A DNA stretch of 63,821 nt, the filler included, from Folioceros fuciformis (lineage: Eukaryota): NCBI GenBank assembly GCA_049999805.1. It is 13 parts of 13 records of this genome, joined end to end, with 100 filler letters (N's around TTAATTAATTAA, not from the genome) between each part and the next. Parts side by side here need not be neighbours in the genome. Positions count along the whole stretch, not along the records: positions 24,925 to 33,616 come from JBNGIO010004960.1; 12 more parts are not named here. One strand, 5' to 3'. The position numbers and the translations under genes were made by a program. The stretch's first letter is position 1. Each line of letters begins with the position of its first letter. Under the pieces are notes generated by a model. It saw only the letters and a program-made list of their open reading frames with translations, searched no databases and had not been told where the DNA came from. Of this stretch, positions 2,593 through 54,129 are shown piece after piece.

Positions 2593-3073
2593 GGCGGCAG
2601 GAAAGGAGGACGCTGCGCAGCGCGAACGACGTTCAGATAACCCTGAGCCTCACTGCCAAAACCGGCTGAATCGTCTTCCGCGTTCACGGACAGCTGTTCA
2701 AAGGGTCCGCGGCACAAAAATGCCGGAGCGTGAAGGCCAACTATGCTGGAGCGCCAAGGCAGCGGAGAGGCGTAGGCGGGGCGGGGAGTTCCAGTGCATG
2801 CAGCAGCCGGCCTACTCCCGCCAGCCTCTTCGACAACGCACTTCTCCAAGAAACGGGTCGGGTAGGTGAAGGGAACGAGGAGTGGGGCCCCTGAATCCTG
2901 ACAACGAAGAATTCCATCTCTTCCTCCACGGACATTCCTCAATCGCTTACTGTCGAGTGACAACGGAAAACAGAGTGTGCTGCGCTTCCAATGAATGCAG
3001 ATTATGAGATTAAATCAACGCTGCTGCAAATGGTGAAATTTTCTTTTTGAGCTACAGCTTAGAATTGCAAGCT

Positions 3074-6000: not shown

Positions 6001-8679
6001 CAGACAATTCGTAGTGTTGGATTGCTGCTTGAATATTGCACATATCTTCGAAGTGTTTAGCATACGCATGATGTGTGTTTTTCAGATGAACTCTATCATG
6101 TTTTGTGGCAACCTCAATAGCCTTCTCCCAATCTCCACACATCTAAACCAAAGTAAATTGATTAAACTCTGAAGCAGGTGTACAGCAGTCTGTAGCAGGA
6201 ACAAAACCTCTGAATCGTTACCCTTGCTATGAACGGCCCAAGGGCAGACCTGATATAGCTGATTCAAAAGGTCATAGCGCCCACATTCCACGTAGAGTCT
6301 GGCTGCCTCATCTTTTAGGTTCAGCTGTAGGGCAATTCTTGCAACCTTGGCTTCCTCCTCTTCCTGGACCAAAGATAATAGACGGCTGACGCTGAATTTT
6401 GGTGTAGTTTTTCAAACTGCTGAAACTGAGATCCTGAATATCACAAAGCATACCAGATCCTCAAGACCAGCCCGAACAAAAGCCGCAGCAGACGCGAGTT
6501 TCATTTTTCCAAAACAGTAGAGGGCCACATCAATTCGCTTGGACTTCACACAACTGCGAGCCACTTTTTCCCAAATCTCTGGGTCTTCTATAGCACATAG
6601 ACTTTTATAAGGTGCATCGATATGGTCAGCACATATGTGATAACTATATTCCAGCAAAGCAGCCTTGGTTTTCTGATCTGCAGATTCCTGCGTACTTTGC
6701 AGAAAACCCAATACCATGCTGTTGGTTAAGCAACAGTCTCAATTTCCTGTTCTAGCAACTCATGACAAGAGCTATTAAACAACAACTGAGTACCATTCCC
6801 CAAAAGTCACAGATTGTTTGCCTCTGAATGACAGAGCTTGGGCCTCCTTCGCGAGTCTGCGTTCGTACAAGGTACAGATATGGCACGTGCACCCCCAACA
6901 GCCCCAAACTTGGATCGTCTAATTTGACCTGAATCCAGTTCAGCGAATACAGGTTCAGAGAACTGCTTGTCCTAAACCAGAGAACACCAAAAGTTCAGTA
7001 TGCCCAAGCAAGTGGCCATCCCTCTACCTAGAGAGGTGCTACAAAGTTGTTTAAAATGTTGTAAGAAAATGTAATTCCCTTTTATGGAAAGCAGTTCCTG
7101 CCTTGTCCTGTATGTATATGTCGTTTGCATAGTCAACAAAGAAGGTAGTAACGGTCCCCTGCAGCTTCTTTCCAGACGGGTCACTTGTGGCAATCTGCTT
7201 CACGTAGGTATGTACCCCATTAGACCATACAAAGAGCAACGGCTAAGGTTTGAAGCAACTTCTTACAACAACACGGTTTCTGTGCTGCCACTTACTGGAT
7301 ATGTTTCACATGCCAGCAACTTAGGCTCCTCAACATCCCAGCAATGTGAGCATGGGATTCTGTTGTCAGATCTGTCAATGCAAGCAAACAACTGAACGTC
7401 TGGACAACAGTATGTTTCAAAAATGTCATGCACATGACAACTTATGCGACAGCAACAATTACATGGAAACTACCTGAAACTGTATTCAACTGTTTTGTTA
7501 TATGCAGTATCATAGATAAACAAGCGCGGATCCCCATCCCCAGAGCTATTGATGAGAAAGCTCACTTTCCTAGCATCGAAATTACATCGGACAGTGTGAA
7601 TATCAGCATCTCCTGAATCAATAACAATCTGCACCAACAAGCACATTAAACTCCTGCCTGTGCTTTGCATCCTTGGAGCAACACTAAGGGTGTACTTACT
7701 TACCCTTCTACGGTCACGTGGCCCATATAACTTGATCTCCGACCCACTTAATTCCCACATATGTACAAAGAATTTTGAAGTGACCTGCGAGATCAAGAGG
7801 AACACAGTCCCTGCTCGACAGATCCTACACGCAATATTGCAAGGTACTAAAGTCCTGGAAGCCACAAGAAGTCCTCAGCTCACCAGTACGAGAAACCCGT
7901 CACACACATCCATGTTGCAAGCTTTGTCACTTGGTTCATTCGTGAAGAGAGTCTCAGATTGTGCACCCTGGAATGAATCCGGATAGAAGGCTTCAAACGA
8001 CTCGCTTCATCTTACACTCTCCTCCCTCCCTCCAGTCAACGCAGTCAACATGCAAGAAGAGATATGCCTCTGTCTTCTGAGCTCCAACCTCTAAGGTCAA
8101 CGCCTTCAATCCTCCCTCCCAGATTTGAAAGATGGAACTGTGGTGCATCATGAGAGTTGATCCTTCAGCAATTGAGAAAGTGGTCTTTAGCTCCATTCCT
8201 GAAGGCACACCAACAGTGAGCAGCAGCTAGAAATGCAGGATTGTGGAAGCCAATCCGTGACCATGTGAACACAGACAGACCCGAAGCTTCGAACTGGTAG
8301 ACTTCGGCACTAGCAGCCTTCCAGAGGAGGACCTGCTGGTCCCAGACATCCACACCTTTGATATCCGAAGTGGAAGTCAAAACATGTGAGCACTGCCATC
8401 AAAGAAATCTGTCAACTCAGGAGAAAACACCCATCGAAGCATCTCATGCCACGTAACGAATGGTGAATGTCAGCTGCACAGTCCATGCAGAACCACAACT
8501 CGCTAACAATCGATGTCTCCGAGAAGATTGAATCGTACCTCCGAGTGTAGGGCTGAAACAAGAGCCTCAGAAGCAGAGAGCTGGACAACTGCCAACTGCT
8601 TGCGGCAACTTCGCTGGATTCGCTTGGTGCTGGCATCTCCCTTGGGGAGCGACGCGCGGGCAGAAGCCAATCCTGTCAT
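3074..8679 (-). CDS. IFT140: Intraflagellar transport protein 140 (IFT-A subunit), many short introns; appears N-terminally truncated
   Basis: Exon peptides: [133 protein letters not shown]...PYVDPAIVEAVYQ. Acidic tail ...DEEIVTD* (3074-3076). First exon MTGLAS...KQLAVVQLSASEALV from ATG 8679. Confidence 0.92.
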
Positions 8680-12467: not shown

Positions 12468-15400
12468 TGAAGGATCCTCCATGAAGGAGGAGAAGAGGAG
12501 GTAAGGAGGAGAGGAGAAAGAGAGGTCACACTCTCACAATGTCTCAATAACAAGGGAGCTCGAGGGGGTTTATATACCCTCTAGAAGAGCTCCCTAGGAA
12601 GCTTCACAAGAAGCTTCCTACATATTAGCTTAAGCTAATCTAAACTAATTATACCCATTTAGACACTAATCTTAGACTAAACACATTAGTCTAAGCACTT
12701 TGAGCTTTAATAACCCTACAACCTCCCACTTAAAGGCCAATTTACCTTCATAGGAGAGTGGTCTACCTCATGCCCATGAGTGTCCGAGCTTGTGCGAATT
12801 CCTCCGTGGAGAGCCCCTTGGTAAGAATATCTACAGGGTTCTGACTGGTGTGAACTTTGACAAGCTGTACCCTCTTGTCTTCCAACACCTTTCGAATGAA
12901 GTGATACTTCACTTCCATATGTTTGGTCTTCGCATGAAACACTGGATTCTTCACCAACTGGATAGCACTCTGGCTATCACAATCCAACATTAGCAGCTCA
13001 ACCTTGATCCCCAAATCTCGCACTACACGAGCAAGCCACGTGGCTTCCTTGCAAGCCTCAGTCGTTGCAACATACTTGGCCTGTGTGGTAGATAGCGTTA
13101 TGCACAATTGCAAACGAGATCGCCATGAGACTCCCCCTCTAGTGCACATGAAGACATAACCTGATAAGGACCTCCTTTTGTCCATATCCCCTATATAATC
13201 AACATCCGTATATCCCACTTCAGATGCATCTTCACTACCAAAACATAAGCACAAAGCTTTCATACCATTCAAGTACCTCATAACTCCTTTCACTGCCTCC
13301 CAATGCTTCTTGTCAGGGTTTGACATAACCTGCTAATCACTCCCACTGCAAAGGCAATGTCAGGACGTGTAGCAATCATTGCATACATCAAACTCCCTAC
13401 AGCTGATGAGTATGGAACCTTCTCCATTTTAGCTTTGTCCTCCGCAGAGCTTGGGCAATCCTTGCTCGAAAGTTTCACATATGGAGGCAACGGAGTACTC
13501 AATACCTTTCCCTTCTCCATGTTGAAACATTGAAGCACCTTGTTAATGCTCTATATATTCATATTCTTGGCATGCGTATTCGGCGAGACAGACAGAAGCA
13601 TTTGCTTTACAGAGCAAGCTTCCATCCTTAGCTTGCTTCGTATAGAGGCAATGATCCTCCACGCTACGTTTGTAGCCTTGAGAAAGCATAAATGAGTGGA
13701 ACTTGTAATACCACTCCCTGGGTGCCTGTTTCAAACCATAAAGGCTCTTCTTTAACCTGCACACCAGATTCTCTTTGCCCTTCTCAATAAAGCCCTCTGG
13801 TTACTGCATGTATACCTCTTCCTGGAGCTCACCATGCGGAAATGCCGACTTCACATCCATCTGGACAAGTTCCATGTCGTTCCTTGCAACCAGAGCAAGA
13901 ACATATCGCAAGGTGGTCATTTTAATAACTGGTGAGAAAATCTCATCAAAGTCAATACCTTGTTGTTGCTTAAATCTGTTAACAACCAATAGTGCCTTGT
14001 ACTTGCCATAATGGGATATGTCCTTCATCTTATGCACCTATTTACAAGGCATCGCCTTCTTGCCCCTAGGCAACCAAACCAACTCCCAAGTTTGGTTCTT
14101 ATGGAGCGAATCCATCTGCGACTACATCGCCTTCTCCCACTTGTCCTTGTGAATCACTGACATGGCTTCTTGATAACAAAAGGGCTCCCCACAATCCGTC
14201 AGCATGACATAATCAAGAGATGCAACATACCTGTCAGGAGGACTTGAAATCCTTTCTGACCTACAAAGCACTGGCAGATCGACCAGAGCTTGTTGCACTC
14301 TCTCCTCTTCTACAAGTGGAGGAACTTGTTCCTGCACATCACGACGTTCAACCTGCGCGGGACGATCAAGTCCATCTTCTTGGAAGACCACCCGTCGCAC
14401 CTCCACAGTTGGAGTAGGCTTCTTGTGCATCTTGGCCTCATTGAAGAACATGTCATTGCTGCGAACAACCCTCTTGGCCTCTGGATCCCATAGACGGTAT
14501 CCCATCTCTCGAGATTCACTACAGCCAAGAAAAATACATTTTCTTGACTTGGGAGCCAACTTTTCCCGAAACTCCTTCGAAACATGGTAGTATGCCTCGC
14601 AACCAAACACTCGTAGATGCTTGTATGACGGCTTCTTTCCAGACCACATCTCCTCTAGAACCTGTTCATCCATAACCCTATTAGGAGATCTGTTAATAAG
14701 ATGCACCACAGTAACCACTGCTTCTGCCCAAAATCCATTAGGGAATCCAGAGTTTTACAACAAACTACGTATCCTCTCCAAGATGCTCCTGTTCATCCAT
14801 TCAGCCACACCATTCTGGGGAGGGGTATACGGCGCAGTCAATTCTCTCTTGATTCCCTTGGAATCACAGAATGACTAGAAAGCCTTCGAAACATACTCTC
14901 CTCCATTGTCTGTCCTTAGACACTTCAGCCGGAGGCTAAATTGATTCTCCACAAGGGTGACAAATTTCTGAAACACTGTCAGAACATCATCCTTTTTCCT
15001 CAAAGAATAAACCCACACCTTGCGTGAGAAATCATCTATGAAAGTGACAAAATAGGATGCACTACCTAACAATACAGTGAGCATAGGTCCACAAACGTCA
15101 TTGTGAACCAACTCAAGAGGTTTACTTTTGTGTTTACCTCTTGCTCTATGTGGTGACTTCGTTTATTTCCCATACAAACAGTGCTCACACACGGAGAAAT
15201 CGGAGCAGTCAAAAGTAGGGATGTAACCAAAACGAGATAGTATCTTCATTCCTTTTTGAGACATATGTCCTAAGCGACAATGCCACAAGGAAACACTTGG
15301 CTGTTCCATTACACAAATCACATGATCTTTGACAAAGGTTACCTGAAGTGAGTACAAAGTGCCACACTTCGATCTACGAGCTAACACAAGAGAACTTTTG

Positions 15401-17115
15401 GAGATCTTCCAAGAATGATCTCCAAACCAACAGTGGTAGCCAGCGTCGTCCAACTGCCCTGCGCTAATCATGTTTTTTGTCAACTTCGGAACATGCCTAA
15501 CATCCTTCAGTACGAATGAAGATCCATTGTCGAACTTCAACTGCACATCACCAACGCCTGCAATCTCGCATGCGTAGTTATTTCCAAGCCGAACACATCC
15601 TTTCCTAGTAGCATCATAAGTGCTAACTACTCCCTATGCGGAGTAACATGGAAAGATGCTTTAGAGTCAATTATCCAATTAGAGAATAAGTGACTCTCCA
15701 CGGCTATCAATTGTGCAGAATCGAAGGAAGACGAGATAAGAACATCTCCATCATCAACAGAGTTCACCTTGTCACGCTTGGTACTCAGACCTGCCTTGTT
15801 GTCACTTTACTTCTTCTCCTTTCCTTTGTCCTTCTTGAACTTCTCGCAGTCCCTTCTGATGTGACCCTTCTTGTGATAATGGTAACACTCAACATAGTTA
15901 CGACTACGAGATTAACTACGGGAAAGATTTCGCTCCTTGTACTTCCCCTTTGAAGTGGACTTCATCTCACCATGAGGGCATTGGAACCTTTCGAAGGTTC
16001 CATATTCTTCTTATTCACCTCCTCTGTTAACTGGCTACCTTCTACATTTACAACAGTAAGACCATTGGCAGGAGCGGAATTACTCAGAGCTGGACGAAAC
16101 GTGTCCCAACTCTTTGGTAATATGATCAACAGAAACATTCTCTCACGGAATCTGGGAATGAGATACCTTGAGATGAGAGCTGGCTGAAAATGATCTTGAA
16201 CTCATTCAGATGATCGAACATCCTCGTCCCTTTCTTTATCTTCAAGTCCACCAGTTGTTTCAACCAGTACACCTAAGAAGCCGCACTTTGCTTCTCATAC
16301 AAGTCACACAATTTCTGCCATAGTTCGTAACTTGTGGTCTTGTTTTTCACATTGAAGTAGACTAACTTCCACAATGTTAGCATGATGGTAGACCTAGCAA
16401 GCTCATCTACATCCTGCCACTCATCATGAGTCATGCTAATAGGTTTCACTCCTAGCAGCTTGATGGGCTTGATATGCTTCTTTTGTACTAGAACATTATG
16501 CACTTGTTCTTTCCACAATGGGAAGTTAGTATTATCTAACTTCTCAATATTGAACATGACGTTTTCTGAGCACATCATGATTCAAAATCGATGCAAATCA
16601 ACCAAAAGGCTAGTTAGAAACTGTCGGAATGTAATGTAGATGTTAATAGTTAGCCTCACAACTCGTTCCGAACGATTGTCCACAACTTCGGCCTCAGTCG
16701 CTCACAACTAGAATGTCTCTCATCGTCTGATCGAGATCCTAACTTCCGCGGCCAAGATCGGTTCGTCGCCGACACCCTCGCTCTTGACGTTTGCGCTCTC
16801 TGCGACCACGATCTGGCATCCGCTATGCGGCGCCCGGCGGCCTACCTAGCCGCGCCCCAACGGTGCCCCGGTGGTCGGCGCCGACGGCCAAAGGGCTTTG
16901 ATACCAATTGAAGGATCGCTAGAGGAGCTGCATGGTGAAGGAGGAGATGAGGGGGCAAGGAGGAGAAGAAAAAGAGAGCTCACACTCTCACAATGTCTCA
17001 ATAGCAAGGGAGCTCAAGGGGGTTTATATACCCTCTAGAAGAGCTCCCTACGAAGCTTCACAAGAAGCGCACAAGAAGCTTCCTACATATTAGCTTAAGC
17101 TAATCTAAATTAATG
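12468..17115 (-). mobile_element. Near-complete decayed Ty1/copia LTR retrotransposon (family A)
   Basis: 3' LTR 12468-12720, PPT 12721-12730, RNase H/RT/INT/PR/gag fragments 12763-16578 with stops and frameshifts, tRNA-iMet PBS (GCTTTGATACCA on +) before 5' LTR 16909-17115 (cut by gap). Confidence 0.95.
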
Positions 17116-19392: not shown

Positions 19393-20323
19393 TAGCAAGG
19401 GAGCTCAAGGGGGTATTTATACCCTCTAGAAGAGCTCCCTAGGAAGCTTCACAAGAAGCTCACAGGAAGCTGCGCAAGAAGCTTCCTACAGATTAGCTTA
19501 AGCTAATCTAAACTAATGATACTTAACTAGACACTAATCTTAGACTAAACACATTAGCCTAAGCACATTGGGCTTGAATAACCCTACAACCTCCCACTTA
19601 AAGGCCAATTTACCTTCATAAGAGAGTGGTTTAGCTCATGCCCATGAGTGTCCGAGCTTGTGCGAATTGCTCCGTAGAGAGCCCCTTGGTAAGAACATCT
19701 GCAGGGTTTTGACTGGTGTGAACTTTGACAAGCTGTACCCTCTTGTCTTTCAACACCTCTCGAATGAAGTGATACTTCACTTCCACATGTTTGGTCTTCG
19801 CATGAAACACTGGACTCTTTGCCAACTGGATAGCACTCTGGCTATCACAATGCAACACTGGCAGCTCACCCTTGATCCCCAAATCTCCCACTAAACGAGC
19901 AAGCCACATGGCTTCCTTGCAAGCCTCAGTCGCTGCAACATACTCGGCCTCTGTGGTAGATAGCGTTATGCACGATTGCAAACGAGATCGCCATGAGACT
20001 GCCCCTCCAGTGCACATGAAGACATAACTTGATGTGGACCTCCTTTTGTCCATATCCCCTGCATAATCAGCATCCGTATATCCCACTACAGATGCATCTT
20101 CACTACCAAAACATAAGCACAAAGCTTTTGTACCATTCAAATACCTCATAACTCCTTTCACTGCCTCCCAATGCTTCCTGCCAGGGTTTGACATGAACCT
20201 GCTAACCACTCCCACTGCAAAAGCAATGTCAGGACGTGTAGCAATCATTGCATACATCAAACTCCCTACAGCTGATGAGTATGGAACCTTCTCCATTTCA
20301 GCTTTATCCTCCGCAGAACTTGG
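19393..20323 (-). mobile_element. Family A copia fragment: partial 3' LTR (19393-19588), PPT, RNase H/RT end
   Basis: LTR matches 12540-12720; ORF has YTDADYAGDMDKRRSTS...HCDSQSAIQLAK...NPADVLTK. Confidence 0.93.
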
Positions 20324-24924: not shown

Positions 24925-26240
24925 TCAGCATCCGTATATCCCACGACAGATGCATCTTCACTACCAAAACATAAGCACAAAGCTTTTGTACCATTCAAGT
25001 ACCTCATAACTCCTTTCACTGCCTCCCAATGCTTCCTGCTAGGGTTTGACATAAACCTGCTAACAACTCCCACTGCAAAGGCAATGTCAGGACGTGTAGC
25101 AATCATTGCATACATCAAACTCCCTACAGCTGATGAGTATGGAACCTTCTCCATTTCAGCTTTGTCCTCTGTAGAGCTTGGGCAATCCTTGCTCGACAGT
25201 TTCACATATGGAGGCAACGAAGTACTTAATACCTTCCCCTTCTCCATATTGAAGCGTTGAAGCACCTTGTTAATGTATTCAGTCTGAGACAAGTACAGCA
25301 AACGCTTCTGTCTATCTCGACGAATACGCATGCCAAGGATATGGCTTGCCTCTCCCAAGTCTGTCATGTCAAAGCGACCATTCAACTTTGACTTCAACGT
25401 TGAAATTTCATCACTGTTAGTCCCAGCAATTAGCATATCATCCACATAGAGGACCAGAATGAGCAAGCTTCCATCCTTAGCTTGCTTCGTATAGAGGCAA
25501 TGATCCTCATCGCTACGCTTGTAGCCTTGAGAAAGCATAAATGAGTGGAACTTGAAATACCACTCCCTGGGTGCCTGCTTCAAACCATAAAGGCTCTTCT
25601 TTAACCTGCACACCAGATTCTCTTTGCCCTTCTCAATGAAACCCTCTGGTTGTTGCATGAATACCTCTTCCTGGAGATCACCATGCAAAAATGCCGACTT
25701 CACATCCATCTGGACAAGTTCCATGTCGAGCCTCGCAACCAGACCAAGAACACAGCGCAAGGTGGTCATTTTGACAACCGGTGAGAAAATCTCATCAAAG
25801 TCAATACCTTGCTGTTGCTTAAAACCCTTCGGGTTTAGGGTTTAGGGTTTAGGGTTCAATGCTCCTCCAAATCTTTGTCTGTGGCATCTGCAGACATGAC
25901 CATCTCGCTCCACAACTTGAGCTCCACAACCTGGCTCTGATACCACTTGAAGGAACACTCTAGGAGCTACATGGTGAAGGAGAGGAGAGGAGGAGGCAAG
26001 GAGGAGAGGAGAAAGAGAGGTCACACTTCACAATAGAGTCACACATACAAGAGAGCTCAAGTGGGTATTTATACCCTCTAGAAGAGCTCCCTAGGAAGCT
26101 TCACAAGAAGCCCACAGGAAGCTGAACAAGAAGCTTCCTTGAGATTAGCTTAAGCTAATCTAAACTAATGATACTTAACTAGACACTAATCTTAGACTAA
26201 ACACATTAGTCTAGGCACATTGGGCTTTAATAACCCTACA
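24925..26240 (-). mobile_element. Internally deleted family A copia: 5' LTR 25948-26240, PBS, ~100-bp leader joined directly to RT
   Basis: PBS GCTCTGATACCA; RT (QMDVKSAFLHG, YVDDMLI) begins at KGFKQQQG immediately after the leader; gag, PR and INT are absent. Confidence 0.92.
25831..25856 (+). repeat. Interstitial plant telomeric repeat (TTTAGGG)3
   Basis: GGGTTTAGGGTTTAGGGTTTAGGGTT at the deletion junction. Confidence 0.9.
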
Positions 26241-26296
26241 TCGGTCGCAGGCGTAGGCCACCATCGTGGCTAGCGCGGGACACAGCCTGGCCGTGA

Positions 26297-26502
26297 GGGT
26301 AGGAGAGCCTACCCGAGGGAGAACTTACCCAACGGGTAGCCTACCCGAGGGAGCTTACCTGGCAGGTATCTTATCCAGCGGGCATCCTACCTAGTGGGGA
26401 TCGTACCTAGCAGGTAGCTTACCCGACGGATAGCTTAACCAGTAGGTAGCTTATCCGGGTGGTGTATTAACGGGTTATTAGAAAAAAAAAAAAAAAAAAA
26501 AA
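26297..26502. repeat. Array of ~17-bp imperfect palindromic units (CTTACCCNNCGGGTAG-like) followed by A21
   Basis: About 9 degenerate TACC...GGTA units at 26297-26460; A tract at 26482-26502. Confidence 0.7.
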
Positions 26503-26721
26503 GTCTGGAGGGAAGTGCTTATGAGGATTACTACCTTTTGACACACATAGGCTGGTTAAGTTGTGTGAATGTCTAGTGTTGATGGTGGGGAAAGTGATAA
26601 GGAGTACGGATTAGAGTCAGAATACTTCTCACCGATGAATAGTCCACGGTTCAAGTATTCAAGAGGCACGTGGTGACGATGAGAAGAAGAAGAGGTTGAA
26701 CAGCCAATCACAAAGGCAACC

Positions 26722-29150
26722 ATGGAGAGTTTGGAGCAAGGAGGCAAGTATAAGGTGTTCACGGGAAGACTCGAAATCTTGACGTTTGAGGAATTTGAGG
26801 ACAAGGTTGAGGCCATATTGGGAGAATTAGAGTTCAAAAACCCAACAAGGTACACTTCGCATTTTGGGTTTACTCAAATGGCTAGGTCTCTTGGAGGCGA
26901 GGCGTTGGCTGCTTATAGGAAGCATAAGGCGGAGCTCACCTGTTTCACTATGGTGACTGAGAGTGGAATGTTGACAACAGTGAAGTAGTACGATCACGAG
27001 GATCCAGTCAAGGAGATGATGGACATCTTGAGAGGAGAGTTTCCAAGGACATCGTCAGAAAAGTTATATGAGCTAACGCATTTTGTGCGAAAGCAGGGAG
27101 AGACTTTGAAGATGAGGTACAGGAGGCTAGAAAGGTTGATGGAAGACACCAAAATCCTCAGTGGGAAGCAAGCTGCGGAAGTGTACTTAAACAACATTCT
27201 AGGGAAGCTGCGAGACAAAGTGACTACACAACTATGGGGAACATTTGGGCAGCAACACATGTTGAAGGATGCTTACGCAATTGCTGAGAAGATGGATACA
27301 GCGGAGGCATACAGTAGAGCTTTTGCGGAGCAAATGCGGAGGCCAAGCAACAACCAACCAAGACTTGGAGAGGGAGCAAGGCAGCAATTCAAATCTGGAG
27401 TGACAAGTGTTTATGGTAGGCCAAGGCACGCTAATGGGGCCATGAACACAATGGAGGACAAGTGTTACAGGTGTTGGAGCCTAACACACAAAGTGAAGGA
27501 ATGCTCTTACTCATTTGGGGGGAATAGAGCTCATGTGAAGTGTAGTGGGTGTGATCGAGTAGGCCATACGGAAGCTGTGTGTTGGCAACTACATCCAGAG
27601 TTGAAACTAGCAATAGGCTAACCTAGCAACAATGCTAGTGGAGCGGGTGCATCTGCATTATTGAGGCCGGATACACGCAAAAGGAAGGCAAAGGTAGTCC
27701 CTAAAGGAAAGAAAACGATGATGGTGAAGGGCGAAGATTTGGAAGCATTGCAGCAAAGCTTGGCAGCTTTGACTGCGAGGAGAGGAGACAATGATGAGGA
27801 GCCTTAAGAAGAAGAAGTGTTGCCTGTGTATGTAGCACATCGAGCAATGGCTGTCACGCAACAACAACATACCAGAGGAATGCAACAATTGCCTATGATG
27901 GAGGAGAATGAAAATGTTGAAGAGGGAGCGGAAAAAACAGACAACTACCGGCATCTGCGACGCAAGTTTGCTAGGATGCCTGCTGGTTTTTAGCAAAAGG
28001 AGCAGCAACCAACAACATTGTCACATGAAGGAGTCAGCATGGAGCAGCCATACCAGAATTCAGCAGCTGTTTTTGCTCGACGATGGGTAAGTGCACCTTG
28101 CATCAACATGTCTAATCTAGGTATGACCGTGGAGCAAGCACAATAGTGGTTGACAGGGTGGCAAGGACGCGGTGCACATGTTGCGATGAAAGAAGATGAG
28201 GGTGGAGGGTTGGAAGGAAAGCCAACTAGGAGTATGGCGGCTAGAAGAATAGCCAATGTAAATGTGGCATTGGTGGATAATTGTGCAAGGCATGTTGACA
28301 TAGAAGGGTTTGCACCAGCAAAAGTACTTGTAGATATAGGTGAACAACCAGTGTTGATAGGAAGGAGGGTGGTGGAAGCTTTGCACCTACATGGAGACAA
28401 GTTGAAACCATCCAGGTAGAACATACGTACAGCGGCTGGCACGACCGAGTCTGTGTTAGGAGAGACGTCCAAATCGTTGAACATAGCATTGAAGCTGAGG
28501 ACAGATGATGCTACATGCATTAAGGTAACTGGTTTGGCTACTGATGCGGCCGATTACGATGTTTTGTTAGGGTCTGAAGAATTGTACCTAGCTTGGGGAG
28601 GAGTTGACAATTGGATAGAGCAAATGTTCTTCCGTCCAAAGTGGAAAGAAGGAGTAGGAACATTGGCATTTGTGCCATTGTCATTGTTGCACCCGGAACA
28701 AGCGGCAATGATGGCTCACACGGTGTATCAAGTGTGTACAACAAGTCTGGAGCTAAGGGAGTCAGTGGCATCAATGCACGAGTTGGAAGAAGACAACGGT
28801 TGAAGAAGCCACATTTGAGAGCTTGTTGGCGGAGGCAGCAATGGAGCAACAAAGGCAAACAATAGCACCTTTACAAATCCAAGGTAGGTCTGCATTTCGG
28901 CAAGCAATGAGAAGGCTAACGTTGTACAAACAAAAGGATGTTGAGCATGTGGAGTACCAACCGGAATCATACTGCCAAGACCAGGGTGTGATTGCTAGTA
29001 ATCATCCAGTAGACCAAAGGATCATTGAGTGGAATGTCACCGAAGAAGGGATCACACTAGTGGAGTTGTTTGGTGGCATATGCTCAGGGCTAGAAGCAAT
29101 GTTGCGAAGTGGTGTGAAGATAAGAAAATATGTCTATTGTGACATAGATG
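26722..29150 (+). mobile_element. Decayed gypsy-like retrotransposon polyprotein: Gag (two zinc knuckles) - aspartic protease - C5 DNA methyltransferase N-terminus
   Basis: One frame from 26722 to ~28800 with point stops, then one frameshift. Motifs: RKQGETL, CYRCWSLTHKVKEC, CSGCDRVGHTEAVC, VLVDIGEQPVLIG...YDVLLG, then GITLVELFGGICSGLEAMLRSGVKIRKYVYCDID. RT was not seen, so the superfamily is inferred from Gag/PR. Confidence 0.8.
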
Positions 29151-29234
29151 TGAAGGATCGCTCCAGGAGCTACATGGTGAAGAAGGAGAGGAGGAGGCAA
29201 GGAGGAGGAGAAAGAGAGGTCACACTCTCACAAT
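29151..29234 (-). mobile_element. Family A LTR end inserted in the methyltransferase domain and itself interrupted
   Basis: TGAAGGATCGCT...CACACTCTCACAAT matches the LTRs at 16909 and 46313. Confidence 0.9.
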
Positions 29235-32200
29235 TGTTAGAAATCAAGCTCTAACTAAATTGTTATTTAGAGCATACAACACTTAGGATAGTGTAGATTA
29301 TCCCATATTGAACTCGTAGTTATCTATCACCTAAGTGTTATCAGGATATATCAGGATATACTAGGATATTGCACCCTCGAGACTAAGGCTTACCTTATCG
29401 AGGGTTGCCCCGCCTGAAGGCTATATGTAGCATCCTGTGCACCATAAGAAAGGAACTCTGGAGTCCTTCTAAGCATGTGGTGCTATTTCAACATGGTATC
29501 ATAGCCAGAGAGAGCGCCGGCGGCCATTGCAGCTATGGTGGGGGTTTGAGGCTATGGCCGTGAGCATGAAGGTGGCAGCCGGCAACGCAAGCCATTGAGA
29601 GGCGCAGGAGGCGCAATGGCGTAGGCGGCGTAAGAAGCCGCAACAAGCGCTACATGCGCAAGAGCGCGCGAGAGGCGTGAGAGGGAGAGAGACTCAGGAG
29701 GAGCAGCAACTACTGGAGGTAACCAGGCCGTGGAAGCCATAGCAGGCCCAGGATTTGCGAGGAGGAAGGCTTGAACTTGGCAAACAATGTTTTGTTTTTT
29801 TTGTTTATTGAAAGCTTGAGCAAAGGTTGTTTTTACTTAGCGAAGAGTCAGCTGCACATTCAGGAATTGTTGAGATTTGATTGAGGCTTGTGGAGTGCTG
29901 GAGCTCTACAGCAGTGCAGGGAGTTGCAGGACAAGTGTTGGTGCGTAAAGGAGCCTGAATCATGGCTAATGTGCAGGGATCAGACAATATCTCTCAGGTC
30001 GTGGGAGAGAAGTTGGATAACAAGAATTTTGCTTTGTGGAAGTTCAGGATGAAGAACTTCTTGGTAGGTAGAGGCTATTGGGACCTCTGCACAGGTGATG
30101 AGAGTGAACCAGAGATGGATCGTACTCCATCACACGAGCAAAAGACTACTCACAAGCATTGGACTGAGAGAGCATGTAAAGTGTTACACTGGCTCTCCTT
30201 AAGCATTTCAGATGCTATGGTCATACAAATCACGGGATGTGAGTCTCCGAAGGATGCATGGGACATACTCATAAGGAACTATGGAAATGTCACACATGCT
30301 AGGAAAATCCAGTTGAAGCAACAGTTCAACAACTTGTCACGAGGTAGCAGATCCATACTTGTGTATACAACAGAGGTGAAGACCATAGCTGATCAACTTG
30401 CTACAATCGGTGCAAGTGTGACAGAAGATGACATGGTTGCAATTACTCTGAACGGACTTGGCAAGGAGTACAAGTCCTTTGACACATCAATCTACGTGAG
30501 AGTTGAGTTCCCAAGTTGGGATGAATTGGTTGCTTTGTTGCTGCATGAGGAAGTTAAGCTTGGTCTGAACACAGGTTCAGGTATATCTCAAGGGAGAGAC
30601 ACTGTTTTGTTTTCTAACCAGCGTGGGAGAGGCCACAGAGGTCGTGGTTCATTCCAAGGACGGGGTGATGCTCGGAACACGCAGAATTAGCAAGACAATT
30701 GGCGTGGAGGAAATGCGCAAGGCTAGAGAGAATCTGGAAGTTTTAGAGGCGCAGGTAGAGCCACAAGAGGAAGAGATGGTTCTTTTCCATCTCATGACCA
30801 TTCCAATAGAGACAAGGAGTGTTACTACTATGGTAAGGTTGGTCATATTGCTAAGGACTGCTATAAGCAGCAAGCAGACATGAGAGGAAAAGGAAGGCAG
30901 CATGGGAACTATGCCTCCTCTAATAATGCTGGAAATGACCAGGATAGGTTGTTCGCCATGCAACATCTCTCTGAACAGGATCGGCAGAATGATGAGAGAT
31001 GGTACATTGATTCAGGAGCATCAAACCACATGACTCCGCATGGCGAGTGGTTTAACAAGATGGATGCAGGTTCCCATGGCCATGTGTGTATAGGAGATGA
31101 CACACAACATGACATAAAGCACAGAGGAATTGTTCCTCTTAGGATGCCGAATGGTCAGCAGAGGAGTCTGCAAGATGTGTTGCATGTTCCAACCATTACG
31201 AAGAACCTGTTGTCTGTTGGACAGATGGCTGAACAAAATCTGCAGGTTCAATTCAATAAAGATGGATGCTTTATTGAAGAATATGACAGAGGGCGCAAAC
31301 TGATTGCTAAAGGTAGTAGGAATGGACGGATGTTCACTCTGGATGCATCCATTCCAGAGCTAAATGCAGCAATGTTTGCAAATGATGCAGGTGCGATACG
31401 TGATGTTGAAATATGGCATAAGAGGATTGGGCATGTGAACATAGAGAAGCTGAAATCTATGCAACAGAAAAGCGTGGTGGAAGGATTGCCCAAGTTCAAG
31501 TATGCTGATCTTGGTCATGTGTGTTCTGCATGTCAATTTGGAAAACAGTCAAGGTTTCCATTTGTGCGACACGTGCAGAACAACTCGAGACCTTTGCAAT
31601 TGATACACTCTGATGTATGGGGTCCTTCACAGAATGCATCGTTTGGAGGAGCCCACTACTATGTCTCCTTCATTGATGATTTCAGCAGGTACACGTGACT
31701 GTACATACTGAAGCATAAGGATGAAGTGTTCGAGTCTTTCAAGGACTTCAAAAAGCATGCTGAAAATGAATTCAGCTGCTCCATCTCTTGTCTAAGATCA
31801 GATGGAGGGGGAGAATATGTCTCAAATGAGTTTGACAAGTATCTTGCAGATCATGGTATACGAAGACAGCTGACGCAGATACACACCAAAGCAGAATGCT
31901 GTTGCAGAGAGGAAGAACAGGGTAGTCATGGAAACAGCAAGGGCAATGCTGAATGAGAAGTGCTTACCTAATGATTATTGGGCAGAAGCAGTGTATGTAC
32001 TGAATCGAACGCCTACGGCAGGAATTCATGATGCTACACCAATTGAGAGACTGTATGGCTATAAGCCGGATATTAGGCACTTGAAAGTGTTTGGGTGCAT
32101 TGCATATGTGCATGTACCTGATGAGAAGCGTAGGAAGCTGGATCCTAAAGCAGTGAAGAGTGTTTTTCTGGGGTATACACGAAATAGGAAGGCATATAAG

Positions 32201-33616
32201 TGTTATGTGCCATCCACACATGAGATCCTCATAAGCAGGGATGTGGTATTTGATGAGTTAGCCTCCTGCTATAGCAACTCAGTTGCACTACCCTATGACA
32301 AACCCACAGGGGAGAGTACTGTTAAGAGTACTCCAGCAAAGAGTGAGGATGTGACCAATGGTGGATCACCAACGGTGAATCCATGGTCTGGAAGATTGCG
32401 GAATGGTAAACCGAAGACCACTGACCCAGATATGTCAGTGAGGGGGAGAGTAGAAAGCAGCAAAACTGGAAATGAGGGATATGAATCCTCAAGTAGTGAG
32501 AGCATTGATAGTGAGTTTGGCATTCTGTCTGTGGAAACGCCAGGTGCTAAGGAGCAACAATATGCAAGGTAGGTTCAAAATGAACCAAGACCAAGGAGAT
32601 CTGAGAGGGTTAGGAAACCCATTGACAGGTACACCTATACAAGCTACAATGCGCAACATTATGCGTATATGACAAGGGTCACCGCTTGTAAGGAGCCAAC
32701 CAAGTTTGTTGAGGCAGTGACAGATGATAAGTGGTGTCAAGCCATGGATGAAGAATATTCAGCATTAGTTGAGAACGGAACGTGGGATTTGGTTCAATTG
32801 CCTGATGGCAAGGTTCCTATTGGTTCCAAGTGGGTGTACAAGCTGAAGTTCAAGTCAGATGGAACGCTGGAGCGTTACAAGGCCAGGTTGATTGCAAAGG
32901 GATATGCACAATAGTATGGTCTTGATTATGAGGAAACCTTTAGTCTAGTAGCCAAGATGACAACTGTAAGGACAGTCATAGCATTAGCAGCAGCTAAAGG
33001 ATGGAAGTTATGGCAAATGGATGTCAAGAATGCCTTCTTGAATGGTGAGTTGCAGGAGGAAGTGTACGTGGAACAGCCTGAAGGCTATGTTCATCCTAAG
33101 TTTCGAACATATGTCTGCAAACTGAAGAAGGCATTGTATGGACTCAAACAGGCACCTAGAGCATGGAATGCTCGTATCACAAGCTATTTGAAGGAGCGAG
33201 GGTTTATGATTGGAGACGCAGATCACAGTCTGTTTGTAAAACAGACCAAGGTAGGACAAGTGTGTCTTGTCGTTTATGTTGACGACCTGATCATCACAAG
33301 AGATGATGCAGATGGTATTGCAGATATCAAGGTGAATCTACAAAAAGAGTTCTAGGTGAAGGATCTTGGTGAACTCAGATACTTCTTAGGAATTGAGGTT
33401 GTGTCTACACCTCAAGGAATCTGGCTATTCCAAAAACAATATGCTAAGGATATGTTGCAGAAGTATGGCATGGCAGATTGCAAAGCGATGGATACACCAT
33501 TGGAGCATAACGTCAAGTTGCAAATGGATGTAGGAGCTGAGCTGGAAAATGTGACTATGTATCGACAGATGGTCGGAAGTTTGATCTACTTGACTATCAC
33601 ACGTCCTGACTTAAGT
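29235..33616 (+). mobile_element. Ty1/copia element (family B): 5' LTR 29235-29493, PBS, gag-PR-INT-RT 29962-33616 with stops and a frameshift
   Basis: TGTT...AACA LTR, PBS TGGTATCATAGC, WYIDSGASNHMT, HSDVWGP, LRSDGGGEY, QMDVKNAFLNG, YVDDLII. Confidence 0.95.
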
Positions 33617-45987: not shown

Positions 45988-46626
45988 CCTGAGCCCCCGC
46001 TAGGGGCTGGGGGCAGAGCGCCCCTGGCCGCGGGGCTGGCAGCCCGCACGGGGCCGGGGTGCTCTATGCACCCTCTACGGCTGGGGTGTCTTGTGCACCC
46101 GTGGCTGAGTGCCCTACGCATAGACGCTCTTGGTGTTCCTAGCGATCTTGAAGCTCCCCAGACGTTGCACATAGCCCAAGATCACTCTTGCTCCTTACTG
46201 CCACTCCTTGCACGGCGGGGTTCGAGACCCTCGCACCTCATAGCCTTGAGCGTCTGTCCGCATCACCTACGGACATCACCATCTTGCTCCGCAACCTGGC
46301 TCTGATACAACTTGAAGGATCGCTAGAGGAGCATGGTGAAGGAGAAGAGAGGAGTAGGCAAGGAGAAGAGAGGAGGGGCAAGGAGCAGAGGAGAAAGAGA
46401 GGTCACACTCTCACAAAAGGTCTCTTTAAATAGCAAGGGAGCTCAAGAGGGTATTTATACCCTCTAGAAGAGCTCCCTAGGAAGCTTCACAAGAAGCGCA
46501 CAGGAAGCTGCGCAAGAAGCTTCCTACAGATTAGCTTAAACTAATCTAAACTAATGATACTTAACTAGACACTAATCTTAGACTAAACACATTAATCTAA
46601 GCACATTGGGCTTTAATAACCCTACA
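45988..46626 (-). mobile_element. Family A copia 5' LTR (46313-46626), PBS and leader, inserted in a gypsy protease
   Basis: TGAAGGATCG...CCCTACA, preceded by GCTCTGATACAA. Confidence 0.9.
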
Positions 46627-49031
46627 GATGTTATAGTTGATGGTGGTTTGTCTACTAACCTAATCAATATAGGGTGGCTTGAGGATCTTGGTTTGGCCTC
46701 TGTAAAGAGGCTAGCTTGCAATCAGGTCTTCAAAGACGCATCCAACACAAGGTTGCCTGTGGTAGGGATTGTTGAGGGCATTAAAGTGGCAGTAGAAGGT
46801 ATAAAGGTATACATGGGATTTACAATTGTGGAATTACTAGAACCAGCATACGGGGTCATCTTGGGTCAGCCCTAGCTTGAATTGGTGAAGCCTAATCATC
46901 ACTAGAACACAAGGGTTTTGGAAACCAGGCCAACCACCCATTGTGTCCAGATCAAAGCATGGCAGCCAGAGGAATTCAACATGTCTAGCAACAATTCAGA
47001 TTAAAGTTCAGAGACTTTTGTATATGAAGAGAGTGGATTAGACCAGGAGGTGGACTTCACTAGTGAACACTTCAACAGCGAGTGAGAGATGTTGCACATT
47101 TTGTCCATACGCATGGCTCAAGATAAGCTCAAACCTGCTTTCAGCGTCAAGCATCCACAGTTGAAGGACTTGAACTTTCATGCTGCTAACAATATTGGAA
47201 AAGTGGTTAACGTGGGTGTAGGAGTTAAGGGTGAAGAGATGGAGAAATATCAAGCCCTTTTCACCAAGTTTGAACATCTATTTATCACTGGCCACCAGGA
47301 GATGCCACAAACTTGACCAAGTTTAAGACTGACATTCTTGCTGATACCAAGCCCAAGATAAAAAAAATTTGTCAACTCTCATGATCACCCAAGCACATGA
47401 ATGAGGTACGACAGGAAGTCATGAGGTTAAAAGTTGTAGGTTGTATTGGGAAAGTTCAGTATCCGATCATGATACTGAACTTTCCCAATACAACCTAGTT
47501 GCTGCCTGGTGTGCAAGTAAATGTCATAAAAACTTCTTCCATGACGTTTTTGTTTTATGTCACAAATATGTTTACATTTACACAAAGCAAAAGCATCATA
47601 AGAACTCTAAAAACCACATTCCCCCATCGTATGTTGTGGCATACATAGGGGCTAAAAGTAGTAGTGTGAATGGGTGTCTCCAATAGTGATGTCAATGACG
47701 AAGAATGGCAAAATTCGTACATGTGTTTACTTTAGGGAGCTTAACAAAGCCACCAAGAAGGATAAGTTCCTTTTACCACATGTGGATGAAATATTGGATG
47801 AGGTATGAGGCTATGAGATGTATTCCTTCTGTGATGGGTATTCAAGTTTCCATCAAGTTGCGATCTCGGAGGAAGATTAGCTAGAAACAACATTCGTAAA
47901 GCCGTACGGTGTTTTCATGTCTAAGATGATGCCTAAGATCAGTCGCAAACAACATTCGTATTTCCGCGGGGTGTTTTCATGTCTAAGGTGATGCCTAAGA
48001 TCAGTCGGAAACAACATTCGTATTTCCGTGGGGTGTTTTCATGTCTAAGGTGATGCCTTTTGGTCTTTGTAATGCACCTTCTTGTTTCCCACGGGTCATG
48101 GTTGAAGTATTGGGAACTACAATAGGGAGATTTCTTAGAGTTTTCCTCGCTGACTTCGTAGTCTTTGGAAATAGGATTGAACATCCCAAGCTCTTAGAGG
48201 AGGTGTTCTTGAGACTCACAATGTCAACATAGGTCCCAACCCAAAGAAGTGTGTCTTTGTTGAAATTGAAGGAGAGCTTCTTCACTTCATGGTAAATTTA
48301 GAGGGTGTCCATGCGGAACCTAAGAAGGTATAGAAATTCCTAGCTAGACCCACCTCCGCAACTGTGGAGGAGGTCAGGTCATTTGTATAGGCAGCAAGTT
48401 TTTATAAGAGGTTGCTTCTTGTCTTCACTAAAATTGCAACACCATTGTACAAGTTGATTAGGAAAGATACAGGCCTTTTAGAATGGAGTGGAACATGCAT
48501 ATAGACAACTCAAAGACTTGATGACATAAGCTCAAGTCATGAGACTGCCAAACTAGGACAAGACTTTCTTCATCAGTATTGAGGTGACTAAGACCTCGCT
48601 TGAGTACAATCTGTTTTAGAAGGATGATGAGACAAAGTTGTACTTCCTAATCTACTTTGTAGGAATGCTCATGACTAGTTGTGAGTCAAGGTATAATTTT
48701 GTGGAGAAGGTTATAGTAGGGATGGTTACAATTGTAAAAAAGTTCCATCATTACATAGCCTCTAGGAAGTTCGCTTTCTTCGTTACCTTCCATCATTAAA
48801 TAGCCTCTAGGAAGTTCGTTTTCTTCGTTACCTTGCACGCTACAAGGTATTTGATGATGATACCAAACCCATTTGGACGTTTTGCTAAATGGCTATGTGT
48901 TCTTTTTGGATATGATTTTGATGTGCAAGTAAAGACATTGAAATTTCGGAAATTTGAGGCATGCTTGTGTGGCTATCATTGTGAGGAGGTTGCAATGATA
49001 CTAAACCTTCTGACATAGAACACAAAAAGAA
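46627..49031 (+). mobile_element. Heavily decayed Ty3/gypsy pol (protease-RT-RNase H)
   Basis: VIVDGGLSTNLI...YGVILGQP; EWVSPIV; RELNKATKKDKF; MPFGLCNAPSCF; RFAKWL. Many stops. Confidence 0.88.
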
Positions 49032-53554: not shown

Positions 53555-54129
53555 NNNNNNNNNNNNNNNNNNNNNNNNNNNNNNNNNNNNNNNNNNNNTT
53601 AATTAATTAANNNNNNNNNNNNNNNNNNNNNNNNNNNNNNNNNNNNNNNNNNNNGGTGTTTTCCATCGGAAGGTCTCCGATGTTGTGCGAGGACCTCACC
53701 TTAGGAGTGCCAAGCCCTTGGCTATACCACACATTGTGAATGCTGGTTGGGACTGAAATCATGGACGGGGAGGCCACGACTCCTGAGTCTGCTTACGAGG
53801 AGGTGCTCACTGGAGGGCGGGCTGCGAGTGTTGTGGTGGAAGCGGCGGAAAAGTACTCTCAGCTGAGCATTCAGGTGTGTTGCTTAGGGGCTTTGATATG
53901 TTATGGATGCGTGGATCTTGAAGTCCTCTTTAAGATGCTTATCCAGGTTCCGAATCCAGACCATCTTTCGTTATGACCCAAGTATGCTTGTGCTTTGCAG
54001 GCAGACAGAAAACAAGGACCTAACTAAGATACCTCTAGTCGGCGGAAGGCAGATGCGGAAGAAGTTGTGGCGTGTTCGTCAGAGACATTGAGAGACGGTG
54101 GGGTGAGCACAACCAAAACGAGGCTCCGT

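Follow-up and report, generated by a model that had tools for sequence, protein, structure and literature searches.

A decayed Ty3/gypsy-type retrotransposon fragment, very probably from a lineage with a DNMT3-like cytosine methyltransferase in the Gag-protease frame

The window, i.e. the whole 63.8 kb stretch of DNA analyzed here, contains a reading frame which starts with the ATG at 26722 and extends to the TGA at 28801, and whose translation comprises a Gag-like region, zinc knuckles and an aspartic protease. Six in-frame stop codons interrupt this frame (TAG 26986, TAA 27619, TAA 27805, TAG 27991, TAG 28144 and TAG 28417), and a +1 frameshift lies at ~28790-28800, where the protease frame and the frame of the following linker and methyltransferase (DNMT) part overlap (28757-28803). 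The frame downstream of the shift is open from 28757 to 29254, of which the element can be read as far as 29149 with the peptide end GITLVELFGGICSGLEAMLRSGVKIRKYVYCDID; from 29151 onwards the sequence is that of a copia LTR. In detail, the Gag-like region (26722-27621) includes the stop at 26986, is closed by the one at 27619 and carries two CCHC knuckles, both of the form CX2CX4HX4C (27463-27504 and 27541-27582). A spacer with the stops 27805, 27991 and 28144 (27622-28209), located inside the alignments with the related proteins P0061 and P0170, leads to a retropepsin-type aspartic protease (28210-28689, stop at 28417), which was detected by Pfam and by tblastn matches to P0160, P0162 and P0164. 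The Asp_protease_2 match at 28294-28575 reaches 27.2 bits (6.7e-6), the cut-off being 24.3. At 28333-28341 the residues of the catalytic triad are D-I-G; the relatives have D-S-G or D-T-G there. The protease is followed by a linker (28799-29026) which aligns with those of P0002, P0007, P0017 and P0090, and finally by the N-terminus of a DNMT3-like domain with ~41-43 residues (29027-29149), delimited by a family HMM and phmmer and broken off behind the codon whose last base is 29149. All features of the locus are located on the plus strand.

Upstream of this frame, outside the element, lies a fragment of an LTR of copia type (“LTR-A”, 25948-26240), comprising the initial ~290 nt of that LTR and broken off at 26240. 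According to blastn within the window, 25921-26240 is similar to 46286-46626, 19396-19588, 12482-12720 and 16894-17115, and beyond 26240 many contigs of the source sample continue differently. A 16-bp tandem array (26302-26453, Tandem Repeats Finder) and a run of 21 adenines (26482-26502) mark the upstream limit of a possible element. No 5′ LTR of the gypsy element is recognizable, and since blastn found no second copy of 26241-26720 anywhere in the window, the window copy is regarded as truncated on both sides. At the downstream side a Ty1/copia element, itself incomplete, occupies 29151-33355 and truncates the DNMT part, as recognized from its shared LTR start, ORFs and Pfam domains. It consists of an LTR-like start with leader (29151-29958), gag (PF14223, 29959-30690), protease, pre-integrase and integrase (30727-32572) and RVT_2 (32915-33355); PF22936, PF13976, PF25597 and PF07727 are the further Pfam families of this insert. 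Over the first 84 nt from 29151, which begin with TG, the sequence is 84-93% identical to the starts of four other LTRs in the window; a 3′ LTR of this copia element and a target-site duplication are absent from the window. Judged from the 5′ junction, the copia insertion at 29150/29151 probably removed everything past motif II of the methyltransferase. The window copy sits within a nest of copia elements. Its host carries a PLS-like PPR pseudogene and is, in view of this and of the occurrence of the family in Marchantia, probably a land plant. A decayed gypsy RT/RNase H region at 47668-48969 was considered as the rest of the element but could not be linked to it; it shows only 27-38% identity to ORF2 of the metagenome locus L001 and is not preceded by a DNMT remnant.

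A preliminary description of this DNA had read a single frame with six stops and a frameshift near 28800, running from Gag over two zinc knuckles into an aspartic protease and cut off by a copia LTR. Translation, the Pfam protease match, the colinearity with relatives described below, the LTR start at 29151 and the copia domains at 29959-33355 bear this out. The order of a Gag with CCHC knuckles and a retropepsin is that of Ty3/gypsy elements; the flanking LTRs of such elements were not recognized here, and DNMT motifs IV to X, RT and INT could likewise not be assigned to the window copy. It is a dead relic, given its six stops, the frameshift, the mutated protease triad and the loss after motif II. 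Altogether, 26503-29150 is with high probability the decayed remainder of the 5′ part of an LTR retrotransposon of Ty3/gypsy type, which belongs to a DNMT-bearing lineage termed type A in the following.

The methyltransferase part is short and its identification depends largely on its relatives. ELFGGICSGL at 29063-29092 contains the glycine loop expected of the SAM-binding motif I; its column pattern is common to 67 aligned domains and the loop aligns with that of DNMT3B. The acidic residue of motif II lies in YVYCD (29129-29143), extended to YVYCD(ID) at 29129-29149; the aspartate column is invariant in alignment A1 (D225) and stands opposite a glutamate of DNMT3B. Both strings, VELFGGICSGL and YVYCDID, were each found in members of the family. 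A DNMT profile built from the relatives, searched in six frames of the window, matched solely at 29027-29155 (i-E 2.3e-19, profile positions 3-45 of 342), and no DNMT remnant, including motif IV onward, was found with it elsewhere in the window. When the translation of 28799-29149 was searched with phmmer against 1.84 billion representatives, 130 matches were obtained at E<=1e-3, 126 of which match the DNMT family profile. P0001, P0004, P0005 and P0006 were rejected as unrelated; they are repetitive proteins, among them a VWA-domain protein (P0006), and their numerous matching stretches involve other parts of the query. With the fragment itself, PF00145 (DNA_methylase) gave no match at E<=1, as only ~41 of the 324 profile positions are present, and the fragment stays below the Pfam gathering cut-off of 22 bits. 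A phmmer comparison with solved structures returned nothing relevant, and word-indexed protein searches with the piece of linker and motif I and with Gag gave no matches. A weak pointer to PF00145 clusters in the ESM Atlas (score 0.90) was left out of the evidence. The assignment of the window copy is hence transitive via its relatives, because the fragment alone lacks a PF00145 or structure match; on this basis it is taken as the true N-terminus of a C5 cytosine methyltransferase resembling DNMT3, including motifs I and II. Profiles of linker and motifs I/II from type A and from a second lineage, type B, score the fragment equally (74.0 and 74.7 bits) and so do not discriminate, and the window copy is assigned to type A only because of the protease upstream.

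The relatives were found among annotated proteins as well as in metagenomes. The closest one, P0061, is 33% identical from knuckle to protease (423 aa, E 1e-47), and colinearity of Gag, protease and motif I was also observed with P0017, P0036, P0038, P0047 and P0127. The Gag part is colinear with P0162 and P0170 of Marchantia (24% over 448-629 aa, E 2e-15 to 5e-22), and all five annotated Marchantia polymorpha proteins match motif I, four of them also the Gag region and four the protease. A first metagenome scan with P0017 as sole query confirmed nothing; in total, 334 metagenome stretches encoding relatives are now known. In 78 of 80 metagenome loci Gag, protease and motif I of the window copy are colinear, with a Gag match of 28% over ~345 aa in L025 and L068. 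In the 80 loci only six reading frames extend across the complete DNMT domain, so that most known copies are dead. Coleochaete, Spirogloea and the five Marchantia polymorpha proteins are assigned to type A as its named members. Within this family the window copy represents, by its sequence, a distant branch, as even P0061 is only ~33% identical, and an intact form of it was not seen.

The arrangement in the relatives shows type A to be a real lineage with the order Gag-knuckles-PR-DNMT and subsequently RT-RNaseH-INT-PHD, as the preliminary description had expected. Among the 47 metagenome loci with at least 1.5 kb of downstream DNA, 46 encode RT within 2.5 kb past the DNMT. In L001, ORF1 (976-5082) contains Asp_protease and DNA_methylase (51.1 bits) and is followed by a TAG and the in-frame ORF2 (5086-8226) with RVT_1, RT_RNaseH, Integrase_H2C2, rve and PHD, which is the Pol order of gypsy elements. 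Gag, protease and DNMT share one frame in the intact relatives, and RT either continues this frame directly or follows after one in-frame stop. Of 59 loci, 37 have DNMT and RT in a common frame; the junctions of these 37 show no stop (16), TAR-CAA-CCC (12), TAG-CAG-TTA (2), TAG-CAA-CTC (1) or other stops (6). The tobamovirus-type leaky context UAG-CAG-UUA is thus present at the stop of two loci, and UAG-CAR-YYA is the leaky-stop motif given in the relevant part of PMC3159437. L013 has direct repeats of 292 nt, 8848 nt apart, and at its 3′ end additionally an A-B-A arrangement; L001 and L009 show no terminal repeats within the DNA covered.

In the relatives, motifs I, II, IV, VI, VIII and X of the DNMT domain are conserved. 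Motif IV reads AGWPCQGHS in uninterrupted relatives, with C and Q invariant and P nearly so among 16 type A proteins; a pattern match for this motif in 18 type A sequences gave PC in 11, EC in one, SC in one and no match in five. E-N-V, A-H-R-x-R..W.N and E-R-E-R-A-M-G are nearly invariant. The PF00145 cut-off is passed by 8 of 8 type A proteins and by 12 of 25 mixed matches. All 29 matches of P0038 to solved structures are DNMT3A/B/C (best E 1.8e-10), and an AF2 model of the L001 domain (pLDDT 89.2) gave DNMT3A/B/C for all Foldseek matches listed, with TM scores of 0.80-0.83 against bare catalytic-domain chains. In sequence and predicted fold, the domain of the relatives is therefore of DNMT3 type. 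A comparison of L001 with L002 yielded dN/dS values of 0.155 for the DNMT, 0.11 for the protease, 0.46 for the linker and 0.54 for the tail, from which purifying selection on the DNMT is deduced for this one pair of copies; the linker evolves faster than the DNMT in the relatives. Several propositions of the preliminary description hold up against these data, namely that ELFGG and the acidic strand represent DNMT motifs I and II, that motif IV, ENV and R-x-R occur in uninterrupted copies, and that the domain belongs to the DNMTs and does not represent some other Rossmann fold. The proposed PF00145 search on the fragment, as mentioned above, produced no score.

A chance or generic Rossmann-fold resemblance of 35 residues not derived from a cytosine methyltransferase would fit the missing PF00145 and structure matches of the fragment and its loop G-G-I-C-S-G, which deviates from the textbook form F-x-G-x-G, but is considered practically negligible in view of the single highly significant site of the family profile, the 126 of 130 matches from a single family, with motif IV, ENV and RxR present in its longer members, the same loop form in DNMT3B (lfdGiatG) and the colinearity of the upstream protease and Gag with these same proteins. 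The preliminary description had also named a one-off capture, in which a Gag-PR element or pseudogene picked up a piece of a host DNMT3, or landed beside it, without any lineage behind it. A second DNMT-bearing copy was indeed not seen in the window. However, the junction of protease, ~100-aa linker and motif I recurs in Coleochaete, Spirogloea, Marchantia and many unnamed sources, including the 78 of 80 loci, and even the linker aligns; furthermore, several diverged Gag-PR copies are found on contigs of the source sample. With 334 metagenome stretches encoding relatives, an isolated event of this kind is very improbable. Equally hard to sustain is a remnant of a domesticated host gene, i.e. 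a Gag-PR-DNMT fusion kept by the plant and no longer a transposon. The Marchantia polymorpha copies carry the annotation of ordinary genes whose end lies after the DNMT, as would be the case for such a gene. Yet the five proteins are separated by very short tree branches (0.009-0.04), as expected of recent transposition, the same ORF is followed by RT-RH-INT in the metagenome loci, and the window copy is full of stops, lies inside the copia nest and has diverged paralogues in the sample. The reading as a fragment of a DNMT-bearing gypsy element is therefore retained.

Elements of this kind are already known, and the window copy adds to them a new but distant member. In its sections on these elements, a study of Klebsormidium and Symbiodinium describes KnitGypsy-Dnmt3 from the streptophyte alga Klebsormidium nitens as a gypsy-type LTR retrotransposon with an intronless Dnmt3-type DNMT, conserved key residues and Ka/Ks < 0.2 (de Mendoza et al. 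2018, PMC5890265). The preliminary description had correctly pointed to DNMT elements in both genera, but the novelty is lower than it supposed. By that description, KnitGypsy-Dnmt3 resembles the present family in being a streptophyte gypsy DNMT3 element whose methyltransferase is subject to purifying selection, its Ka/Ks < 0.2 comparing with 0.155 for L001 and L002. It differs from the window copy, which is a dead fragment in a host with a PLS-like PPR, probably a land plant. No sequence named as Klebsormidium was among the matches of our sequence searches, so KnitGypsy is compared by its description. The Symbiodinium elements SymbioDIRS-Dnmt3 and SymbioLINE-Dnmt, whose acquisition the authors judged to be independent (PMC5890265), likewise represent retrotransposons bearing a DNMT, but belong to the DIRS and LINE classes and to another eukaryotic supergroup. 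In the literature search, with subscription journals and supplements outside its range, no account of land-plant retrotransposons with a DNMT was found; “KnitGypsy” appeared in one paper only, and the coverage found in print consisted of that study (PMC5890265) and one sentence in a survey from 2025.

Type B, found in the present analysis, has the order RT-RNaseH-DNMT-(G-patch)-INT-PHD(-Tudor), with the DNMT between RNase H and integrase and not after the protease as in type A. It shares with type A the same DNMT3-like domain family, the gypsy RT/RH/INT set and the PHD finger after the integrase, and its named members are Cymbomonas tetramitiformis, Chromochloris zofingiensis and Haematococcus lacustris. 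In an unrooted domain tree one branch (SH-aLRT 99) splits 36 of 36 type B from 15 of 15 type A rows, and E-C-Q predominates as motif IV of type B (33 of 42 proteins) versus P-C-Q in type A. The animal enzymes DNMT3A, 3B and 3C have the glycine-loop form, P-C, E-N-V and R-x-R in common with the transposon domain. In contrast to them, the latter is only ~21% identical, lacks PWWP and ADD and is located inside a Gag-PR polyprotein, and the PHD finger of DNMT-bearing gypsy elements is found on the integrase, unlike in animal DNMT3s. Chromoviruses are gypsy elements whose integrase bears a chromodomain at its C-terminus, and they are not known to carry a methyltransferase; they resemble the present elements in the fusion of a chromatin reader to that C-terminus, here a PHD finger, there a chromodomain.

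From the frame layout and the leaky-stop context of the relatives, a possible mode of action can be sketched. As the DNMT is placed in the same frame as Gag and protease, the methyltransferase would be made at Gag-like abundance, with readthrough of the stop codon at the DNMT/RT junction, and could be released by the protease of the element itself. It might then act on new cDNA of the element or on DNA around the insertion site, and the C-terminal PHD finger of the integrase might direct insertion toward certain types of chromatin. The window copy performs none of these steps. A rival to this mechanism, not to the identity of the domain, would be a genuine DNMT domain which does not methylate DNA but acts on RNA, e.g. 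its own transcript, or only binds SAM or nucleic acids. In yeast, the Klebsormidium domain produced no methylation, a test which the authors call inconclusive, and they raised RNA methylation for the LINE-borne DNMT, while SymbioDIRS-Dnmt3 caused de novo CG methylation in yeast (PMC5890265, passages on these assays). The negative result carries little weight because human DNMT3B was negative in the same assay (PMC5890265, same passages). The replacement of Pro by Glu in the Pro-Cys of most proteins of the sister lineage, type B, speaks for the rival as well; against it stand P-C-Q, E-N-V and R-x-R, invariant or nearly so in type A, the predicted fold of the DNA enzymes DNMT3A/B/C and the low dN/dS. 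We consider the rival rather unlikely, and methylation of DNA by the type A enzyme the preferred reading.

The contribution of the window itself is one distant, dead member, but the streptophyte kind is widespread, as indicated by the 334 metagenome stretches and the named algae, with relatives in Marchantia and many further green organisms. Two domain orders occur, which differ in their habit at motif IV. Near-identical annotated “genes” of the family are present in the model liverwort Marchantia polymorpha, and since this plant is genetically tractable, the use of the enzyme to the element is directly testable. Cytosine methylation is the main weapon of the host against transposons, and a de novo methyltransferase borne by a transposon thus inverts the usual picture. 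A further-reaching proposal, to which we attach little probability at present, is that land plants, and not streptophyte algae alone, harbor a living gypsy lineage in which a de novo methyltransferase of DNMT3 type is expressed in one frame with Gag and PR, and in which a programmed leaky stop of the UAG-CAR-YYA type keeps RT-INT low relative to it. If this were true, the enzyme would be abundant and packaged with Gag and would methylate new cDNA before or at integration, so that copies would arrive already marked. Such pre-marking could represent self-restraint or a mimicry of host methylation, and the elements could be a recurrent source of, or a competitor for, host DNMT3 activity in bryophytes.

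Inspection of the region 26400-29700, with all frames translated, bore out the preliminary description of one reading frame with Gag, two zinc knuckles and an aspartic protease. This frame starts with a Gag-like protein at the ATG at 26722 and continues through two CX2CX4HX4C knuckles (27463-27504 and 27541-27582, plus strand) and a long spacer into a retropepsin, which matches Pfam Asp_protease_2 with 27.2 bits (cut-off 24.3). The protease triad reads D-I-G (28333-28341) and is D-S-G or D-T-G in relatives. The six stops and the frameshift near 28800 were likewise recovered: stops are located at 26986, 27619, 27805, 27991, 28144 and 28417, and the frame closes at a TGA at 28801. The continuation lies in the +1 frame, which is open from 28757 and whose meaningful part closes at 29149, ending ...GITLVELFGGICSGLEAMLRSGVKIRKYVYCDID. 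The window copy is a nonfunctional relic. The proposal that a copia long terminal repeat (LTR) cuts off the frame also holds, with a TG-initial sequence beginning at 29151, the first 84 nt of which match the starts of four further LTRs elsewhere in the window, and with copia gag, pre-integrase and RVT_2 domains downstream of it. No LTR of the element itself was found upstream in the window; a copia LTR, itself broken, occupies 25948-26240 there, followed by a tandem array with a 16-bp unit and by 21 consecutive A (A21). Just before the broken LTR, a short interstitial run of the plant-type telomere unit (GGGTTTA, 3.7 copies) is found at 25831-25856.

The identity of the last residues had been proposed from an ELFGG motif and an acidic strand, read as motifs I and II of C5 cytosine methyltransferases (DNMT). 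The suggested Pfam check (PF00145) on the piece itself failed: neither Pfam nor the search against sequences of solved structures gave a DNMT match for the fragment alone, which is too short. An exhaustive phmmer search with 28799-29149 against 1.84 billion representative proteins (E<=1e-3) yielded 130 matches, nearly all on query residues 80-117, which comprise motifs I and II. Whereas 126 of them fit the profile of one domain family, the remaining four were repetitive, unrelated proteins and were set aside. The family profile, built from 67 members and 342 positions long, was then searched against the six frames of the window. Because its only match is 29027-29155 (i-E 2.3e-19, profile positions 3-45), the piece is, as judged by sequence comparison, real and corresponds to the N-terminus of the DNMT domain of this family, the remainder of which was found nowhere in the six frames. 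The reading of motifs I and II thereby stands.

Family members occur in two domain orders. Type A proteins (among them P0017, P0038, P0061, P0036, P0127, P0047 and the Marchantia proteins) show Gag-knuckles-PR-linker-DNMT without an intervening reverse transcriptase (RT), and type B proteins show RT-RNaseH-DNMT-(G-patch)-INT-PHD(-Tudor). The window fragment was assigned to type A because of the protease upstream. A single branch (SH-aLRT 99) of an unrooted 76-domain tree separates all 15 type A rows from all 36 type B rows. Additional modules of type B are the G-patch between DNMT and integrase (P0106, P0068) and a PTM/DIR17-like Tudor domain behind the PHD finger (P0020). P0191 of the P0102 cluster, a type B polyprotein piece of 151 aa, is filed by NCBI as a hypothetical protein under a Betaproteobacteria metagenome-assembled genome and probably represents eukaryotic DNA binned into a bacterial genome.

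Motifs IV, VI and VIII, which had been named as a check on intact copies, are present in longer relatives: past the motifs of the window, the family alignment contains AGW(P/E)CQ.., E-N-(V/T/A), AHR.R..W.N and ERE.A.G. Proline of the catalytic Pro-Cys motif is present in 11 of 18 type A proteins; in type B (e.g. P0012, P0024, P0030, P0054) its place is taken by glutamate (..GWECQDLS) in 33 of 42 proteins, and proline is present in five, the motif IV cysteine being retained in both types. Pfam DNA_methylase scored above cut-off in eight of eight type A proteins and in the first open reading frame of the intact metagenome locus L001, and in only 12 of 25 mixed first matches. Against solved sequences (E<=0.01), the type A protein P0038 gave 29 distinct matches, all of them DNMT3A, 3B or 3C (best 1.8e-10), and in the alignment the glycine loop, P-C, E-N-V and R-x-R coincide. 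The L001 domain was modelled with AlphaFold2 (pLDDT 89.2) and compared by Foldseek, where every match listed was a DNMT3A/B/C chain with approximately 21% identity, and bare DNMT3 catalytic-domain chains reached TM scores of 0.80-0.83. By sequence and model, the family domain is a DNMT3-type cytosine methyltransferase.

A metagenome scan with the type A alignment detected 334 stretches encoding relatives, 80 of which were kept as loci. The window Gag-PR translation matches 78 of these at 26-37% identity, with no similarity at the nucleotide level. In L001, ORF1 (976-5082) encodes Gag-PR-DNMT and is followed by a TAG and the in-frame ORF2 (5086-8226) for RT-RNaseH-INT-PHD. RT was found within 2.5 kb behind DNMT in 46 of the 47 loci with at least 1.5 kb of room, and the postulated Gag-PR-DNMT-(RT) lineage is thus confirmed in relatives. 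Both parts share a frame in 37 of 59 loci. The context 3' of the stop between them is conserved, with TAG-CAG-TTA in two loci (L001, 5083-5091; L002, 2081-2089) and TAR (TAG or TAA)-CAA-CCC in 12 (e.g. L004, 13715); one further same-frame locus has TAG-CAA-CTC, 16 are stop-free, and six have other stops, which probably reflect decay. UAG-CAR-YYA is described as a tobamovirus readthrough signal (PMC3159437). Because the stop context is conserved, yet 16 same-frame loci lack a stop, the data suggest that some subfamilies use programmed readthrough and that others make a fused polyprotein. Most copies are dead, since only six reading frames in the 80 loci span the whole domain. For the single pair L001 and L002, dN/dS (NG86) was 0.11 in PR and 0.155 in DNMT, against 0.46 in the linker and 0.54 in the tail. 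Repeats around one element in L013 are arranged as B ... A-B-A (6764-7055, 15435-15619, 15612-15903, 15904-16088) and not as two plain LTRs, which recalls the DIRS-like repeat structure of Klebsormidium elements (PMC5890265, legend of Fig. 4c).

The DNMT fragment lies in a window of nested copia elements. The only host-gene-like piece examined is a PLS-like PPR pseudogene with an internal stop (53655-55211, minus strand; PF01535 1.1e-16, PF13041). PLS-type PPRs mark land plants, and the host is termed a probable, not a proven, land plant. Among contigs from two runs of one sample, aligned to the stretch at >=80% likeness, the Gag-PR part exists in several diverged forms: at a single position as many as 12 contigs differ from the window, internal deletions occur, and most differences are transitions. 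The family is therefore multi-copy in the source, as seen for this part. A heavily decayed gypsy RT/RNaseH (47668-48969, plus strand; RVT_1 and RT_RNaseH_2 in two frames, internally duplicated and with many stops) shares 27-38% identity with L001 ORF2. It shares the strand of the DNMT fragment and lies 18.5 kb downstream of it, but no tie to the DNMT element was found. Further observations are a 44-bp satellite at the window start (1-457, at least eight copies, 85-100% identity) and N runs in pairs (two of 44 N each, with 12 bases between them) at 12 places from 17116 to 62563, which break several copia reading frames and look like withheld or masked stretches rather than assembly gaps.

Named type A sources are Coleochaete scutata (transcript), Spirogloea muscicola and five Marchantia polymorpha gene models, including Mp_4g09160 and Mp_8g17980; those of type B are Cymbomonas, Chromochloris and Haematococcus. 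De Mendoza et al. (2018, PMC5890265) reported gypsy elements with Dnmt3 from Klebsormidium nitens, which were under purifying selection but for which activity was not detected in yeast, and one sentence of a 2025 survey repeats this finding (PMC12344493). In openly accessible article texts, we found no published description of DNMT-bearing gypsy elements in land plants. Since the kind is already known from a streptophyte alga, the window fragment is a new, distant member of it. The role of the enzyme for the element is inferred. The more interesting yield is the relatives, with their spread over green plants and algae, two architectures, a likely readthrough junction and their presence in Marchantia.
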